The notes beneath the pieces were generated by a model. That model was not told the DNA's origin. It saw nothing but the letters and a program-made list of their open reading frames with translations, and did not search any database. 64,000 bases of DNA from a virus (Duplodnaviria; Caudoviricetes): the IMG/VR virus record IMGVR_UViG_3300010348_001841; one strand, 5' to 3'. This document shows, one piece after another, positions 20,210-64,000 of the stretch. A program made the translations under genes and the position numbers. Positions within the stretch are counted from its first letter, which is position 1. Every line of letters starts with the position of its first letter.

Positions 20210-20782
20210 ATGCATAAAAAGACTGATATCCAAGATTTAGACATCCCTAAGGATGATATTGAATGCTGGGAAAGATATCCTAAACATCATTGGGTATACG
20301 ATCTTTCAAGATTGCTCGATGCTCAAAATATAAAATGGAGTCCTTATGAGACTGAATCTCTGCCTGATAGAGAACTAAACATGAGCTTAGAGACATCACA
20401 GACATGTGTTCGTCAGCCCGGTTATATCTTTGTAAAAAAGCCAAATTTAGAGGCAACTATAACAGAAGTGTATGTTACAAAGGGGGAGATAAAACTCATG
20501 CGTCATATCGATTCTCTTACACGAAAAGAGTTACCCGGAATCAATGGCGAAATAGAACTACGCATTAGCGCATTTGTCACAATTTATTTTCAGAAGTTCA
20601 CAGGAGTCATCTCAGTAGAGTCATTGGGATCTGATATCTATTCAATGCGCCTAAAGCCATACTCAGACCTATCCCAAGAAACAAATGCAGAAGTTATAAA
20701 ACTCATAAAGCGCATGTTCAAGAAGACTGAAACAGTAATCGGTCTGAAAGACCGAGCCCTTCATGAATCACTCGCTTCGTAA
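20210..20782 (+). CDS. Hypothetical protein
   Basis: 190-aa ORF with SD GAGG; IPKDDIECWERYPKHHWVY resembles phage ATP-grasp-like proteins (weak). Confidence 0.6.
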   Translation: MHKKTDIQDLDIPKDDIECWERYPKHHWVYDLSRLLDAQNIKWSPYETESLPDRELNMSLETSQTCVRQPGYIFVKKPNLEATITEVYVTKGEIKLMRHIDSLTRKELPGINGEIELRISAFVTIYFQKFTGVISVESLGSDIYSMRLKPYSDLSQETNAEVIKLIKRMFKKTETVIGLKDRALHESLAS

Positions 20783-21275
20783 ACTACGCTCGCAATTCAT
20801 TTCGTGCTGTTTAGGAGAAAGAGAAGTTTTTTAGAAAATAATATTGACGGTGGAGTCAGAGAAAGGGTATCGTAGCAAAGCCTAAAAAGACAGTGCTACG
20901 ATACCCTTCATCTTAGATACTTGACAGCATCATCAGAGACTGAAACAGACTATTTTAGAAGCATTGGATTGATTATGTCAGCTTCTCGCTATTAGCGGCC
21001 TGTTAGGGGGACGAGTAAGACTACTTACACAAATCCTCGTGGTATATCGCAATTCCTCTTCAGCCAGTAATTGCACCACCTGCGGGCCATACCTTTCTTT
21101 CACATACCCACAGCAAATTTCATTTCACTTCACTTACGTAGGATGCATGGTACAGCCTGGTCAAGGGTCCGTCCTATTTCTTTGAAGTTTGCCATTGCAC
21201 ACCCAATGGACCTGGCTGTTGCGCTCCATTCCGAACGACACGCCGGCGAAATTATTACCTTGGCTCGCCAACCTT
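20763..21275 (-). ncRNA. Candidate large structured ncRNA or replication-origin RNA
   Basis: No credible ORF; at least eight hand-identified helices, several with G-U pairs that only form on the minus strand. Boundaries are approximate. Confidence 0.55.
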
Positions 21276-21454
21276 TATTGTGATTTAGTAATTAGAAAAA
21301 TTTGGATTTTATTTTTGAGACTTGGGTTTTGTGTATATAGAAAATTTTTGTGTAAACCTATACGCTGATGTCCTTGTACGTTCACGGGTCGCGTCACTCC
21401 CGCTATCTATTTTGAGTTATTGTGCTTGAACAACTTTTTGTTGTTACACTATTT

Positions 21455-21510
21455 TAGCCCTGCGAGCAAGACAGGGCTAATAATTTTGGTCACAGCATTG
21501 CACTGTGACT
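21455..21510 (-). terminator. Two hairpins downstream of the endolysin
   Basis: TAGCCCTG...CAGGGCTA (about 21455-21479) and GTCACAG...CTGTGAC (about 21489-21509). Confidence 0.55.
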
Positions 21511-22091
21511 TAGAACTCTCTTGTAGGATCTGAAACAAATGCTCGAAGTTCGTTTACGCGCCTCATCCAGCCATTGATAAATCTAGACTGCGAAGGATCC
21601 TTTGCTACAATGTTATTGTAGAATTGTTCACGTTGGAGACATACAGACTCACAAAGAAGAAAAACATCAGCTTCGTTTGCTGCTTTGAGCGTTACAGGAC
21701 CGATAGAACCATCGTCTGTTAGTCCAAGGGCACGCTGCAAGAATTTTGCTGCTCTACCAGGGCCGCTATTCACTGCAATATCAAAATGTAGTGCTGCATA
21801 ACGACCGGGCAATTGGTCACACTTTGATGCAAGCCAGTATTTCTTGTAATAGACATCTTTTGCTTCTGCCCATGTAAGATTTGTAATATCTAACTCTGGA
21901 TTTGCATTTTTTGCAACACCAAATTTAGTTTCACCGCCACGATCGAGTGGGTCGTTAACATATCCTACGGCTTTTTTCTGTGCAGGTGTGGAGATTAGAC
22001 CGGCCTCAACCTCTGGTGTTAATTTCCAGAAGCCACCGACTTCATACAACATTGCATGATCTACTGCTTTTTCGAATGCGGCTGAATACAT
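21510..22091 (-). CDS. Endolysin, glycoside hydrolase family 108 with peptidoglycan-binding domain
   Basis: EVGG...GYVNDPLDRGGETKFGV, YYKKYW, FDIAVNSGPGRA, LQRALG..DDG.IGP.TL, FINGWMRR. Confidence 0.9.
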   Translation of the reverse strand: MYSAAFEKAVDHAMLYEVGGFWKLTPEVEAGLISTPAQKKAVGYVNDPLDRGGETKFGVAKNANPELDITNLTWAEAKDVYYKKYWLASKCDQLPGRYAALHFDIAVNSGPGRAAKFLQRALGLTDDGSIGPVTLKAANEADVFLLCESVCLQREQFYNNIVAKDPSQSRFINGWMRRVNELRAFVSDPTREF

Positions 22092-22153
22092 CTTATTCTC
22101 CTTTGTTTCTACCTATTTATGGACCTAGATAAATAATGAAAACAGGGGTTATA

Positions 22154-22720
22154 ATGCCATCAAAAAGTAAAGCAAAAGGTAATGCATGGGAATTAGAAGT
22201 TTCTAAATTTCTAACAGACACCTATGGTGAGACGTTTATCAGAATACCGTCATCTGGTGCGTTTGTGGGTGGCAAGAATAATGTTCGAAAAGAGATGTTA
22301 GGCGACGCGCAACTACAGAGCAAGAAGGGTGATATTCATCCACCACAAGATTGGAAACACTGGAATATAGAATGTAAAAGCTATGCCGATTTCCCATTTC
22401 ATCAACTTTGGTATGCAGATGTAAAAATCCTCGACGCCTGGATTCAACAACAGAAGGACGTCGAGGATGAGGGGGATCTAAACTTGATCCTGATAAAAAT
22501 TACTCGAAAAGAAAAGTGGATTGTGTTCCCGGCAACTCTAGAATTTCAAACTTCTCGCTCATTTCTATATAAGGGTTGGCAATTTGTTCATTGGGAAGAT
22601 TTTTGGTCTCGTCCACAAAATCTGGCATTGGTGAAAAAATATTCGGTAGAAGGTGTGGATTTAACTGATAAAATTTCTCATCAGTCATCTGAGACAATTC
22701 ATCAAATGAGTCCAGCCTAA
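22154..22720 (+). CDS. Holliday-junction resolvase (PD-(D/E)XK)
   Basis: SKAKGNAWE, RIPSSGAFVGG, GDI..P, IECK.Y. Start moved to ATG 22154 (SD AGGGG; late promoter at 22128-22135). Confidence 0.8.
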   Translation: MPSKSKAKGNAWELEVSKFLTDTYGETFIRIPSSGAFVGGKNNVRKEMLGDAQLQSKKGDIHPPQDWKHWNIECKSYADFPFHQLWYADVKILDAWIQQQKDVEDEGDLNLILIKITRKEKWIVFPATLEFQTSRSFLYKGWQFVHWEDFWSRPQNLALVKKYSVEGVDLTDKISHQSSETIHQMSPA

Positions 22721-23216
22721 ACTTTTCAAACTGGTTAAAGTATCCAATCTTTGAATCTTTATATTTCTTTGGGCGCTTTTTACTCCAGGTAATAATGTAG
22801 CGTTTCTTACCTGCATTTTGCCCATAGCATTCTCTTGCCATGGACTTAGCATAATATTCTGGCAGATATAAAAAGGAAACCGCTTCGGGAGAAATAGGAT
22901 TAAAAATAGTTAATCTAATAGATCCCATTTTACCTTCTACATTTCCAATTTCAGCCTTGCCTGTTTTTATATTGACAGTTCCTGTCTTTGAATCCGAATT
23001 ATCGATATCATTGAAGTCGCGACCAGCTTCGTCAACAAAATCAAATTTTCCAGATTTAGCAATACTATGCTCTATGAGATTTTCTACATCTAATGCCTTA
23101 GGATAATTTTCTAATATTTTCAATGCACATTCCTGCATTAATATATCTTTAAAAATATCGAGCTTCTTAAAGATAATCTCGCGCATTAGTATTTGATGTT
23201 TTGTTGTATTATTCAT
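22500..23216 (-). CDS. Hypothetical protein, possibly nuclease-like
   Basis: 238-aa ORF coupled to the end of gp46; VENLIE...DFNDIDNSDSKT suggests a divergent PD-(D/E)XK core. Confidence 0.6.
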   Translation of the reverse strand: MNNTTKHQILMREIIFKKLDIFKDILMQECALKILENYPKALDVENLIEHSIAKSGKFDFVDEAGRDFNDIDNSDSKTGTVNIKTGKAEIGNVEGKMGSIRLTIFNPISPEAVSFLYLPEYYAKSMARECYGQNAGKKRYIITWSKKRPKKYKDSKIGYFNQFEKFRLDSFDELSQMTDEKFYQLNPHLLPNIFSPMPDFVDETKNLPNEQIANPYIEMSEKFEILELPGTQSTFLFE

Positions 23217-60016: not shown

Positions 60017-62320
60017 ATCAATCTATCACTAAACTTAATTAAAAAGGCTAGGTAATCCTCTTCTTTTCTAAATTTAACCGTGTAACTCTTATTAATTCCA
60101 GAACTAATGCCAAACATCGAAATGTAATCAGTATTCTCAAGTTTAGCATTCTTAGCCCAATCCCAGAGTTCCTCTATCTCTACTCTAACCCTAGAAGAAT
60201 AGGGATACTGCGGATATTGTAAATGGCTACTCATAGTCCAAACCTTAACTTAAAAGCAAGAGCTAATTCCGGATCGACAAAATCGTAGTAAGGTAATTTC
60301 AGAATATAATTTACTACGGTGGAACCATGATTGCCGACATTATCAGTATGCTGTGCAGATGTCTGTAGCTCACCCGGAAAATATTTGTAATCTAGATTTG
60401 CTTCAATATTGTTTTCCTTAAACCAGCCGATGTATTCTGCCTGGTTCGTGTCCTCTTTTTCCAACCAATAGAATGTAAAAGGTAGATATATTCTTGTCAT
60501 ATTTTATGCTTCAGTTTAAAGGCTACAGCATCTTCAGGATGTTCAAATTCGATTCGGTAACTAAAAATAGTTAGACCATTAAGTCTGTGTGGTATCCCAT
60601 CCTCAAGTAACTCTGCACAGAAATCTTCCATTATATTCTGTTCTTCTTCTAATGTACGAGTTTGGTTATTACCTAAATTCCTAAAGTAATCAAAGAACCT
60701 AACCTCTACCATATTATAAACCAAAAGTTAACCTAAATGCCAGGGCATCGGCGGGATCATCAAAAAGAATATAATTAGAATTTATATTCCAACTCCCCGG
60801 AACATTATTTCTTTTTAACCATCCCTCCCAATCCGTTAAGTACATAATATGCCCAGGAAGGATAATAAAACACTGTGTATCCATTATAGTCCAAACGTCA
60901 ACCTAAACAATACCGCTATCTCAGGATTTTCAATGTGTATGGCAATAGGGGTCTTAATAGTTGCACCTTCGTTATCATATTCATTATCATATTCGATATA
61001 ATAATTTTCAAAGACCGGTAACTCTTCTAACCAGATCTCCATATCCCTTATCGTGCTAAAGTATTCTCCCCAAGGCAATCGCGTAATACCTGCATTGTTG
61101 TAAAGCTTTATTACGGGCATATTCAAAACCTAATATGTCCTGTATATCCAGTCTTAGCATACTGCGAGTTTATAGAAAACCTAAGTACAAAAGCAGTCAT
61201 ATCCTCTATATTCTTAAATAGGATAGCAGCACTAAAACTATTGGTAATTGGTTTATCCATAAGCCCCGCAACAACATGCACAATAGATTTCAAATCAGTT
61301 AGTTCTGTCTTCTCATCCGACCAACAAAAATCTACCTTATTGTCTTGTAACCATACAAGCATTTCAGTAATAATCTTCCTAATTTCTAAATTGCCAAGGC
61401 TCTTAGCACAATACATATCAGTAAGATAAAAACAACAATGCGGATAATCCTGACTAAAGTATAACGAATTATTCATCTATACCATTCGTATGTTGTAGTG
61501 TTGAATGCATAAATTTTGAAAGGGGATGCAAGCTTGAAGGCTAGATATGAAGCTTCATTAGGTAATGTAAATCCTACAATAAGATAATTTCTCATCGTAT
61601 CATAAATGTAATCTACTTCGGTGTTGAGATTTCTTCTTACCCAATCGTATACAAATACACCGAATGAATGTGAGATCTTTTCAGCATCATAACTAGGTGG
61701 AATGAATGATTCTATATCTAATTCCATTGAGTTCTGATATACTTGTATCACCATAGCCCCATCCTAATCTCACCGTAATCCACTATAGCTCCGCTGCTCC
61801 GTGAGCCGAAAATTTTAACTTTAAGATCGTATAATCTTCCTCAGTATATACTGCTATACATACAATGTCTTTATTACCATATTGTTCCCACGTTAGATTA
61901 TATCTACCTTTACCGAAAGTATTCAAGAGCTCATCATGCAATTTACCAATGTTTGGAAGAATTCCATTAGCATAGATATCAGTAAAAGTTAGATCGTGAC
62001 GCAGGATAGTATAATTGTAATTCATAATCTGAGATTGTTATTTAAGTACGTAAGGATGAGTTTTGTAAATATTTTCCATACTTCAGTCTTAGCAATGTAG
62101 CATCCTCTTCTGAAGGAACGAATATAACAAGTAGTTCGTTTATTCCAACTGACTCCCAAGCTTCTTGAAATTCCGGAACAGTTTCCTTTAGCTCGGCGAT
62201 GAAGTTTTGGTATTCTTTCTTAAACGTGTCTCTGAAGGCCCCGTAATAATTCTGCATGCAGTAATAGCGAACGAAGTATTTGAATACTACGTAGTACGGA
62301 TATTTTTGTATGTATGCCAT
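60013..62320 (-). CDS. Nine further tandem EDA-F-L paralogues: 60013-60234, 60231-60500, 60497-60712, 60714-60884, 60884-61126, 61123-61476, 61473-61754, 61783-62025, 62042-62320
   Basis: C-termini FRKEEDYLAFLIKF, FVDPELALAFKLRF, FEHPEDAVAFKLK, FDDPADALAFRLTF (56-aa ORF absent from the track), IENPEIAVLFRLTF, FKNIEDMTAFVLRF, LPNEASYLAFKL, YTEEDYTILKLKF, PSEEDATLLRLKY. Confidence 0.75.
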
Positions 62321-62345
62321 TTTGGAATTATTGTGCAGGCGGAAA

Positions 62346-62420
62346 AGTTGCAGAAAAAGTGGCCCTATAGGATAGCCCGGAATAGTTGCAGAAAAATGGC
62401 CCTATAGGATAGCCCGGAAT
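62346..62420. repeat. Tandem direct repeat, 2 x 37-38 bp
   Basis: AGTTGCAGAAAAA(G)TGGCCCTATAGGATAGCCCGGAAT at 62346-62383 and 62384-62420. Confidence 0.95.
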
Positions 62421-62468
62421 TTTTTAGTTGCGGCTTGCCCGCGGTCATTCAGATCCCACCTCCTAAAA

Positions 62469-62531
62469 ATTATACAGGCTGACTGGGATTTGCGCAACCT
62501 TTATTACATCATTTACATTTTGTTACATCTC
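62469..62531 (-). promoter_or_regulatory. Early sigma70 promoter cassette 1, pointing into the paralogue array
   Basis: TTGCGC-17-TATAAT with upstream GAGATGTAACAAAATGTAAATGATGTAA. Confidence 0.8.
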
Positions 62532-62562
62532 AGCTTCTACCTCACTGTGTGTAACAAGATGT

Positions 62563-62580
62563 AAAGGGGCTTGCGCCCCT
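62563..62580 (-). terminator. Terminator hairpin at the GC boundary
   Basis: AGGGGC-GCAA-GCCCCT-TT on the minus strand. Confidence 0.6.
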
Positions 62581-62592
62581 CCGTGTTCTGTG

Positions 62593-62805
62593 TTAGTTCA
62601 CGTAGTCGTTGACGAGTTCCTCCAGCTCACCAATGCTGTCACGCACCACGCCGCACACGTCCGTGACCCCGTGCTCCGTGTATGCCCCCACCGTCTCCAG
62701 CACCTCCGTTGCGTCCGCCATCAGCGCACCCACTTGGTCCAGCAGGGCCCGCGCCGCTTGCAGCTTTGCGAGGGCTTCTTGCTTCTTGCTTTGCACGTTG
62801 CTCAT
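62593..62805 (-). CDS. Small early helical protein
   Basis: Start MSNVQSKK at 62805, after cassette 2; GC-rich codon usage. Confidence 0.65.
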   Translation of the reverse strand: MSNVQSKKQEALAKLQAARALLDQVGALMADATEVLETVGAYTEHGVTDVCGVVRDSIGELEELVNDYVN

Positions 62806-62816
62806 GTTGCGCTTTC

Positions 62817-62889
62817 GTTGTGTTGCAGTGTCTATATAATAGCGCAATGGAGCTCACTGTGCAAGCACATTTACATTTTGTTACATCTC
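62817..62889 (-). promoter_or_regulatory. Early promoter cassette 2
   Basis: GAGATGTAACAAAATGTAAA..TTGCAC-17-TATTAT..ACACTGCAACACAAC. Confidence 0.8.
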
Positions 62890-62991
62890 TCCGGGGAGTG
62901 GTTGAACATTGGTTAGAAGCCCTGTACGCTGTCGCTTCCGTGGGTCGCTACTCTGGTAGCAGGGCTTCTCCGTTTGCTTGCTGTAGGGCCC

Positions 62992-63159
62992 TTACGGGGC
63001 TTCGCTGAACCCCTTGCACCAGCCCAGGCCCCACAGGGTGTGCAGGCGGGTCTTCTCAGGGTACGGGTTCCGCAGGAAGCCTGAGCAGTCAGGCGACTTG
63101 GCACCAATGGCCTCGCCCTTCTGATAGGCCTCCTTCTCCCCTGGGGTTTGCGCTTGCAT
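62992..63159 (-). CDS. Rmf (ribosome modulation factor)-like small protein, 55 aa
   Basis: MQAQTPGEKEAYQKGEAIGAKSPDCSGFLRNPYPEKTRLHTLWGLGWCKGFSEAP contains AY..G...G...NPY...W..GW..G. Below the ORF track's length cut-off. Confidence 0.6.
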   Translation of the reverse strand: MQAQTPGEKEAYQKGEAIGAKSPDCSGFLRNPYPEKTRLHTLWGLGWCKGFSEAP

Positions 63160-63175
63160 GTTGGTGTGCCCTTAC

Positions 63176-63424
63176 TTAGAAGGCGTTCGCCTTCTCGATG
63201 CGCTTCAGCACATCAGCCTTGGTCACGTCCTGGACTTCCTTGGCGCCCAGCATGGCAGTGACTTCCTCCATGGCCTTGGAGATGGCCTCGTTGGCCAGGC
63301 TGCTGAGCGTCACGTAGCGCACCATCGTCTTCTGCGACAGGGCTGCTTCGAAGCCCGCGATGAGCATGAAGCCACGGTTGCGAGCTTGCGGGATGACGCG
63401 GGTGAACAGGGTTCCGATTTGCAT
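63176..63424 (-). CDS. Small early protein
   Basis: Start MQIGTLF at 63424 with SD GGAG, after cassette 3. Confidence 0.65.
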   Translation of the reverse strand: MQIGTLFTRVIPQARNRGFMLIAGFEAALSQKTMVRYVTLSSLANEAISKAMEEVTAMLGAKEVQDVTKADVLKRIEKANAF

Positions 63425-63435
63425 TTCGTTGCTCC

Positions 63436-63498
63436 GTTGTGTTGCAGTGTTGTTACTATAGCGCAGGTTGGATACTGCGTCTACCACTGTTACATCTC
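63436..63498 (-). promoter_or_regulatory. Early promoter cassette 3
   Basis: GAGATGTAACAGTGG-TAGACG-17-TATAGT-AACAACACTGCAACACAAC. Confidence 0.8.
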
Positions 63499-63757
63499 AC
63501 CACACCTCGCACATGTTGGGGAACCGATCCAGGGCCTGGAGGGTGTCCAGGGCGCGATCCGCCGCAGCGTAGGCTTCCGCTTCGCTGTTGAACAAGGGCG
63601 CGCTGCCGCACGTGAAAGCCTTGTACTCGTCGCCCGGGACGCCGCGCCACGTCTCGAAGCACGCAGACCACTTGCCGCTGTTCTTGTCGAACTCCGGGGC
63701 GGCGATGCAGGTGCGGCTGGGGGTACGACCTTGGTGATGCACGTTGCGCTCGATCAT
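63497..63757 (-). CDS. Small early protein
   Basis: 86 aa with SD AAGGAG, after cassette 4. Confidence 0.7.
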   Translation of the reverse strand: MIERNVHHQGRTPSRTCIAAPEFDKNSGKWSACFETWRGVPGDEYKAFTCGSAPLFNSEAEAYAAADRALDTLQALDRFPNMCEVW

Positions 63758-63767
63758 CTTGGGCTCC

Positions 63768-63827
63768 TTGTTGCAGTGTCGTTACTATAGCAAGAAGGAG
63801 TCCTCCTGTCGACCACTGTTACATCTC
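63768..63827 (-). promoter_or_regulatory. Early promoter cassette 4
   Basis: GAGATGTAACAGTGG-TCGACA-17-TATAGT-AACGACACTGCAACAA. Confidence 0.8.
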
Positions 63828-63926
63828 GCGGCCCATGCAGAACATCTCCGCGAAGTCCCACAGGGACCCGTTGTGGCCCTTATACTCATCGAGCAGGGCC
63901 TGCGACCAGGCGTTGTGGAATTCCAT
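63819..63926 (-). CDS. 35-aa early micro-ORF
   Basis: MEFHNAWSQALLDEYKGHNGSLWDFAEMFCMGREM; its stop codon lies inside the GAGATGTAAC box. It follows a partial ORF ending at 63929. Confidence 0.45.
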   Translation of the reverse strand: MEFHNAWSQALLDEYKGHNGSLWDFAEMFCMGREM

Positions 63927-64000
63927 GATCAGCTCAGGCAGTAGTCGACCAGGTCGTAGAAGGTGTCGTACACTTCGCCCGGGCCTTCGATGGCCCCGTC

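Follow-up and report, generated by a model that had tools for sequence, protein, structure and literature searches.

What occupies the 727 bp that separate two convergent gene stops at positions 20783-21509 of the 64-kb window (i.e., the whole stretch of phage DNA that was analyzed)? A preliminary description had reported a gap of ~730 bp free of ORFs at this site, and the gap proved to be real: the longest ORF inside it reaches 70 aa and none of its ORFs is conserved. On one side it is bordered by the stop of a plus-strand gene for a protein of 190 aa (20210-20782), which lies directly after a gp26-like baseplate hub gene, served as our synteny anchor and could be assigned to no family, its product having no Pfam or PHROG match. 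On the other side, and on the minus strand, lies a gene for a GH108 endolysin with a peptidoglycan-binding domain (21510-22091; PF05838, PF09374, PHROG 315), which is located upstream of the RNA described below and on the same strand. Since the two flanking genes converge, the gap is not the promoter region of either. The genes of the window include those for a T4-type portal (PF07230), the gp26-like baseplate hub and gp46/gp47-like recombination nuclease subunits. The nearest cultured relative of the portal is that of Pseudomonas phage PA5oct (58% amino-acid identity), and the source of the DNA is a T4-like jumbo phage.

Querying IMG/VR with the 190-aa protein retrieved 21 loci, in which an ORF-free stretch follows the gene wherever the contig goes on. 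Seventeen of them extend to a minus-strand endolysin-like gene, with gaps of 620-960 bp. Across the 21 loci, the main aligned stretch of the gap shares 65-79% nucleotide identity with the window, whereas the flanking protein is only 48-65% identical. The gap is thus better kept than the protein next to it, which is the opposite of how a spacer behaves. The best-conserved stretch (the apical loop of helix P16, see below) provided a 23-nt pattern that recovered 40 further viral loci, and a 21-nt version of it recovered 67 metagenome loci. After duplicates and eight chance matches were dropped, 58 distinct full-length homologues from viral and metagenome contigs remained, with a mean pairwise identity of 66% and a minimum of 43%. 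In one lineage (L005, L006, and L008), ~250 additional bases are found between the 190-aa gene and the 3' end of the RNA (e.g., L006:4579-4827), and the gap measures 960 bp. These bases hold an 82-aa minus-strand ORF downstream of the RNA 3' end.

A protein-coding gene or a set of small ORFs was rejected, as there is no conserved open frame and indels are mostly out of frame. Specifically, the longest ORF of each homologue ranges from 36 to 121 aa, at scattered positions and on both strands; all six frames carry 9.5-12.4 stops per frame; and 549 of the 601 indels in the homologue alignment are out of frame (52 are multiples of three).

On the other hand, the gap folds. Its minus strand had been proposed to form a large multi-helix RNA, and the folding energy agrees with this, with z = -4.2 for the minus strand and -2.2 for the plus strand (20 shuffles each). 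For 30 sequences, RNAalifold gave 74 pairs, of which 48 show compensatory changes, and the top pairs in a mutual-information scan of the 58-sequence alignment were all Watson-Crick, with 3-5 pair types. On the basis of these two analyses and of reading the alignment, we built by hand a model that has 21 helix segments with 87 pairs in all and includes two pseudoknots. Among the 4954 cells of alignment A2 that fall in these pairs, 93.0% form a standard pair, as compared to 35-42% when the partners are slid by 1-3 columns and 78% in shuffles. Changes on both sides were observed in 76 of the 87 pairs (30-43 when slid), and compensatory cells numbered 716 (74-145 when slid). None of 500 shuffles reached the observed value for any of these three measures. 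This is a structured RNA whose pairs are kept by compensatory change above the register-shift controls, with the reservation that covariation does not formally separate RNA structure from single-stranded DNA structure. Helices P10, P11, P13, and P16 are among those with 99-100% of their cells paired, with up to five pair types per position. Since G-U cells (338) outnumber A-C cells (93), the folded strand is the minus strand, an argument that had already been made from the window and that holds in the alignment. Taken over the family, the covariation establishes a conserved predicted architecture of at least 20 helices and at least two pseudoknots.

The whole conserved RNA at this locus (type 1) covers ~600 nt of the minus strand (20843-21447), as delimited by a family-profile nhmmer match (21462-20834), alignments A1 and A2, and covariation, and its ends were set at the limits of conservation. 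It is preceded by an upstream conserved block (21451-21489, minus strand; A1 columns 30-75) that consists of a TCAAGATTGT-like sequence (the window has CCAAAATTAT), a hairpin that varies and is often a palindrome, and then GCTAAAATAG. The 5' domain (21325-21445, minus strand; helices 1-6 of the model) is missing from the type-2 paralogues described below. It begins with the P1 hairpin (21429-21445), followed by an H-type pseudoknot in which the loop (21391-21394) of helix P2 (21384-21403) pairs with 21362-21365 to form PK1. The latter covaries from ACGC/GCGU to AUGC/GCAU and ACUC/GAGU. What had been noted as a GC-rich block is indeed present, and is more precisely this pseudoknot (P2 and PK1). 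The "A-rich spacer" reported next to it is in part paired, as P3 (21354-21358 with 21325-21329) covaries from GGUUU/AAACC to GAUUU/AAAUC, a G-C to A-U change seen in 12 sequences. An A/C-rich linker that varies in both length and sequence (21275-21324, minus strand; A2 columns ~324-420) leads to the core.

The core (20945-21274, minus strand) extends from a second H-type pseudoknot to the P14-P16 junction. In this pseudoknot (21246-21274; helices 7-8), S1 (GG/CC plus one pair) is interleaved with S2 (GCGA/UCGC). The first S2 pair shows double changes in 16 sequences, and A2 contains the variant AGGA/UCCU together with GUGC/GCAC. Of the longer stem GUUGGCGAG/UUCGCCGGC proposed previously, just the inner part survived, as S2, which covaries in the 58 homologues. 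Next comes a branched domain, P5-P9 (21127-21244; helices 9-14), in which the window's subgroup has an insertion (21144-21171). P7 and P8 both have 4-5 pair types at every position, and P7 corresponds to the CCAUUG/CAAUGG pairing of the preliminary description, which covaries in the 58 homologues. The helix that was supposed to enclose it (ACAGCC-A-GGUC/GACC-A-GGCUGU) was abandoned, since it needs an insertion present in few sequences and clashes with the covarying P5. In the P6 loop, positions 231 and 236 (21227-21232) switch jointly between G/G (43 sequences) and A/A (15 sequences), a covariation outside the Watson-Crick rules, suggestive of a conserved tertiary motif.

The following segment (21009-21113; helices 15-18) comprises P10, the stacked P11 and P12, an invariant GA, and P13. 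P10 consists of 7 bp, all of which covary and are paired in 100% of cells, and is capped by an invariant GGUAU. Two of the stems read from the window fall here and covary in the 58 homologues, namely CUGUGGG/CCCGCAG (P10) and GUGGU-GCAAUU/AAUUGC..ACCAC (P11 and P12), while ACGAG/CUCGU had to be given up for its clash with P11 and P13. An invariant CCC then opens a junction in which P14 surrounds the hairpins P15 and P16 (20945-21008; helices 19-21). P14 reads ACAGGC/GUCUGU in the window and CCGAAA/UUUCGG in most sequences. The previously noted (A)GAAGC/GCUUC(U) is P16, which likewise covaries in the 58 homologues and carries an 18-nt apical loop (20963-20980) that is nearly unchanged in the 58 sequences (UGACAUAAUCAAUCCAAU in the window, UGACAUAAUCAAUCCAAC in most).

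The 3' domain (20843-20944, minus strand) contains the hairpin P18 (20916-20931, with variable stems), one long or two short hairpins, a conserved GAUACCCUU(GG)UCUGACUCC, and a tail. The long hairpin is the 15-bp perfect stem AAGGGUAUCGUAGCA/UGCUACGAUACCCUU (20863-20908), with an invariant AUACCCU in its 3' arm. It had been described from the window and holds for the 15 sequences of the window's subgroup, including the second-locus copies. In the main group it is replaced by two overlapping and mutually exclusive short hairpins (GUAUC/GAUAC and CAAGG/CCUUG), both with compensatory changes. The UGCUGU/ACAGCA stem that was thought to close this domain extends past the conserved 3' end and was discarded. 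AUACC is complementary to the GGUAU at 21089-21093, a candidate long-range pairing in which both partners are invariant across the family.

Rfam 15 (4227 models, including GOLLD, ROOL, OLE, HEARO, raiA, RNase P, tmRNA, group I/II introns, self-cleaving ribozymes, 6S, and riboswitches) gave no match at or above the family gathering scores, either in the 64-kb window or among nine homologous loci, in agreement with the initial impression that the fold matches no recognizable tRNA, tmRNA, RNase P, or intron core. In sensitive mode (E up to 10) the gap region returned noise only (BTnc049 at 16 bits vs 82 required, mir-43 at 15 vs 90), and ARAGORN found no tRNA or tmRNA genes in the window. Further candidates were tried and rejected. 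Resemblances to universal 16S motifs such as GAUACCCU and GAGCGCAAC are at chance level, and neither the best local alignment scores nor shared 8-/9-mers with a real 16S sequence were higher than those of dinucleotide shuffles, which speaks against 16S rRNA mimicry. A hammerhead core was dismissed, as the CUGAUGA of the window is CUGGUGA or CUGGCGA in homologues and is therefore not conserved. The RNA of a retron, a DGR, or a group II intron was dismissed on the basis of four complete genomes, from which the reverse transcriptase (PF00078) is missing in searches with positive controls. Because strong covariation is combined with the lack of an Rfam match and of a conserved ORF, a large and previously undescribed phage ncRNA, encoded on the minus strand, is well supported. 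The preliminary proposal was thus right as to novelty and strand and fell short as to length, which is ~600 rather than ~500 nt.

Outside of the viral and metagenomic contigs, the family was searched for in prokaryotes and cultured phages. The 21-nt loop pattern had 5 matches in 185,579 prokaryote genomes, for ~4 expected by chance, and none of them showed similarity to the family. Among cultured phages, blastn with the window copy and with a main-group copy returned nothing meaningful, and tblastn with the flanking 190-aa protein returned no match. The core covariance model (R1) reached only E = 0.57 as its best match on the whole genomes of PA5oct, Atu_ph07, Vibrio phage 2.275.O, and Phosso. 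A 663-bp unannotated gap by the portal gene of PA5oct was considered as a counterpart and turned out to be unrelated AT-rich sequence. Within these searches, the family is restricted to T4-like jumbo phages (~365-385 kb) that have not been cultivated.

Of the four complete genomes with terminal repeats, three (364.6, 369.1, and 385.4 kb) carry a second copy (type 2) at a distance of 182-196 kb from type 1, and the fourth (G001, 362.8 kb) carries type 1 only. One copy is present in the 64-kb window. In a 369-kb genome that was read through (G003), both copies are encoded on the main coding strand, at 123.5 and 319 kb. The type-2 copies form a diverged subgroup (L044, L098, L100, and L110) in which the 5' domain is missing and the P5-P7 region differs, while the 20-nt top of the P16 hairpin (UUGACAUAAUCAAUCCAACA) stays identical and the other invariant blocks are retained. 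Type 1 is located between baseplate-hub genes on one side and the endolysin gene on the other, and type 2 follows a nucleotidase- or kinase-like gene and is convergent with PhoH, with a clamp loader nearby. At one type-2 locus, the gp44-like clamp-loader gene (L110:4594-7086, minus strand) contains an intein (830 aa vs 311 aa in L044 and L100; Intein_splicing match). In the 385-kb genome, the type-2 neighbourhood is flanked by two NUMOD3-domain proteins (L044:6845-7447 and L044:11050-11787, both minus strand), which are probably homing endonucleases. G003 (L142-L160) also has 47 tRNA genes, in the stretches 45.8-50.3 kb and 226.5-277.1 kb, together with a tmRNA of permuted (two-piece) form at 261189-261528 with the tag ANDSFYTEALAA; this form may hint at the host lineage. 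Its two RNA copies are far from the tRNA clusters and do not adjoin the permuted tmRNA.

In our reading, this RNA founds a new class of large ncRNAs in phages, which would work as folded RNAs. The probability that the gap is the gene for a conserved minus-strand ncRNA of ~600 nt acting, by inference, as a folded molecule in its own right can be put at roughly 0.7. A size of this order, pseudoknots, and unpaired nucleotides that never vary are characteristic of RNAs whose fold carries their function, which makes a trans-acting folded RNA the likeliest reading. Such an RNA might act as the scaffold of a ribonucleoprotein, as an RNA-only scaffold, or as a ribozyme-like machine. Its working centre would be formed by the nucleotides that never change, i.e., the P16 apical loop, GGUAU, GA, CCC, and AUACCCU.

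A further clue comes from the 7-nt element CNGUCAA, which is present twice, in the loop of P18 (20927-20921) and in the 3' tail (20850-20844, as CCGUCAA), where conservation ends. The core of the first copy is in a hairpin loop in 55 of the 58 sequences. Across the family the element varies (GUCA, GUUA, GGCA, GGUA/GGUG, CCCA, GUCAU, and GUCAG), and the two copies almost always have the same letters (at position 5, CC in 46 sequences, UU in 10, and GG in 1); for five of the seven positions, an identity this high was reached in none of 2000 shuffles. No third segment consistently complementary to both copies was found, nor did a partner protein or a target for them turn up. A 3'-end hairpin (UGAC/GUCA) is possible in most sequences and was rejected, being uncompensated in the variants. 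As the copies are identical rather than complementary, they suggest that one common partner (a protein, another nucleic acid, or a catalytic core) recognizes both, and they would then be two equivalent docking or processing sites. Covariation between identical letters in a loop and in a 3' tail is unusual, and any mechanism proposed for this RNA must account for it.

The repeats also bear on the alternatives. We rank a processed or self-processing RNA first among them, ahead of a 3'-UTR element, a transcript from an origin, and a promoter nested within the gene. In the first of these, the CNGUCAA elements would be cleaved by one core or nuclease, freeing a 3' module of ~80-115 nt (a hairpin plus GAUACCCUUGGUCUGACUCC). 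Such cleavage would fit with the identity of the two elements through independent changes (GUCA, GUUA, GGCA, GGUA/GGUG, and CCCA) and with the most conserved 3' segment being bracketed by them. Moreover, a large RNA that is rich in pseudoknots and invariant unpaired nucleotides often proves to be a ribozyme (RNase P, group I/II introns). We nevertheless consider it unlikely, as known self-cleaving motifs are unmatched in the Rfam search, a search for an internal guide sequence that could pair with the sites was negative, and the two copies stand in different structural settings (a hairpin loop for one, the tail for the other). The closest parallel is found in the ToxI RNAs of type III toxin-antitoxin systems, whose direct repeats are cut at identical sites by one endoribonuclease. 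The likeness lies in identical short sequences that recur within one transcript and suggest a single recognizing partner. Unlike ToxI, the present RNA has two 7-nt copies only, in different structural settings, with no tandem array and no adjacent toxin gene.

How the RNA is transcribed is relevant to the next alternative. The late-promoter motif of the phage, GATAAATA, was counted 16 times in the window and immediately precedes many genes, but it was found neither in the gap nor before the endolysin gene. From its absence in the gap, the RNA is probably made before the late phase. Sigma-70-like sites are no commoner in the region than in shuffles, and no convincing promoter or terminator was recognized there, so that both the 5' and the 3' end were placed by conservation. 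The spacing within the upstream block at 21451-21489 is unlike that of a sigma-70 -35/-10 pair, and no further instance of its composite motif was found in the window or in G003; the block might be a promoter or an operator, or it might hold the actual 5' end of the RNA. Several relatives have the stop of the endolysin gene just 4 nt from the first conserved block, and the RNA could be released from the endolysin mRNA instead of being separately transcribed. Accordingly, it might be a cis-acting end-of-operon element, i.e., the 3' UTR of the endolysin mRNA (type 1) or of the nucleotidase/kinase mRNA (type 2), which would serve as a stabilizer, an exonuclease block, or an insulator of convergent units. 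Each paralogue does lie directly downstream of a same-strand gene and faces a convergent gene, and the short distance from the endolysin stop and the failure to recognize a separate promoter point in the same direction. Yet a clear intrinsic terminator stands between the endolysin gene and the upstream block in many relatives (a few are without it), which argues for a separate transcript. Furthermore, the genes upstream of the two loci are unrelated, and a 600-nt fold with pseudoknots and an invariant loop goes far beyond the needs of known 3'-end stabilizers. An end-of-operon role is thus decidedly unlikely.

The preliminary description had suggested a replication primer or R-loop RNA. The analogy has its source in ColE1 RNA II, a structured RNA of ~550 nt, and in the primer transcripts of T4 oriF and oriG; the present RNA would likewise prime replication through an R-loop, with the two copies marking two origins. 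The size and structure of RNA II apart, the only hint in favour is that the copies are 182-196 kb apart in genomes of 365-385 kb, or about half a genome. In G003, however, the cumulative GC skew tracks the orientation of the genes without an inflection at either RNA locus (123.5 and 319 kb), a test that has little power in T4-like phages. Downstream of the RNA there is neither a conserved AT-rich unwinding element nor a conserved repeat array, one complete genome has a single copy, and T4 origins require just a promoter and an unwinding element, with no elaborate fold. The primer suggestion is therefore one that we regard as very improbable. Least probable of all, and only a slim chance, is a DNA-level signal in which the invariant "loop" is a promoter, with TTGACA, an 18-bp spacer, and an A/T-rich -10, for a nested short transcript of the 3' domain: a perfect TTGACA is present in the hairpin top of 55 of 58 sequences (CTGACA in the window, with TAAAAT 18 bp on, a 10/12 consensus match), but the entire 18-bp spacer is invariant as well, which promoters do not need, the -10 position is poorly kept among homologues, the flanking P16 stem covaries as RNA, and promoter-like matches in the region are at chance level.

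A folded RNA acting in trans therefore remains our preferred reading. Its fullest form would be a jumbo-phage-specific large RNA of a new class, namely a ribozyme or an RNA-only/RNP machine built around the invariant loop, with two specialized paralogues per genome and two 7-nt docking or cleavage sites. We propose this form tentatively, at somewhat less than even odds. The nearest known relatives in kind are GOLLD (RF01998) and ROOL (RF03087), large ornate RNAs that are often found on phages and prophages, whose function is not established and which often adjoin tRNA genes. The present RNA is, in G003, far from the tRNA clusters. Cryo-EM has shown that GOLLD and ROOL form RNA-only multimeric assemblies (10.1101/2024.12.08.627333). 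They share with the RNA described here the size class (~600-800 nt), many helices and pseudoknots, a link to phages, and the lack of an associated protein gene. On the other hand, our RNA has no sequence or structure match to either covariance model, and its carriers are virulent-type T4-like jumbo phages, in contrast to the Firmicutes prophages that carry GOLLD and ROOL. Paired RNA elements at two loci of one phage genome are known from HK022 (putL/putR) and lambda (nutL/nutR), where they act in cis. These resemble the present case in that two related RNA elements occupy fixed positions of one genome on the main transcription strand. They differ in that they measure 30-70 nt and stand at the start of long operons, whereas the RNAs described here are ~500-600 nt and stand at the ends of transcription units, facing convergent genes.

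New classes of large and highly structured RNAs of bacteria and phages are rare, and the few known large classes (RNase P, group I/II introns, OLE, GOLLD, ROOL, and HEARO) have all proved to be ribozymes, guide RNAs, or RNA assemblies of an unexpected kind. Considering that the carrier phages possess 47 tRNAs and a tmRNA beside an RNA of this complexity, the RNA likely marks an unrecognized step of jumbo-phage infection. With the alignment and the fold supplied here, it is directly open to experiment.

Some additional features of these genomes were observed. Positions 20763-20800 of the window hold the conserved C-terminal codons and the stop of the 190-aa gene (minus reading AGTTTACGAAGCGAGTG) and align as coding across relatives, a conservation for which an origin signal need not be invoked. 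Beyond the endolysin gene, a PDDEXK/RusA-like nuclease ORF (22136-22720, plus strand) and a 238-aa ORF (22500-23216, minus strand) overlap by ~220 bp, and one of the start or stop calls involved is probably wrong. The GC content rises to 0.47-0.61 at the right end of the window (62000-64000). Likewise, both ends of G003 (0-35 kb and 360-369 kb) have a GC content of 0.51-0.57 and few long ORFs, compared with ~0.40-0.44 in the remaining genome, and these GC-rich ends may represent a terminal-repeat-proximal region of different origin.
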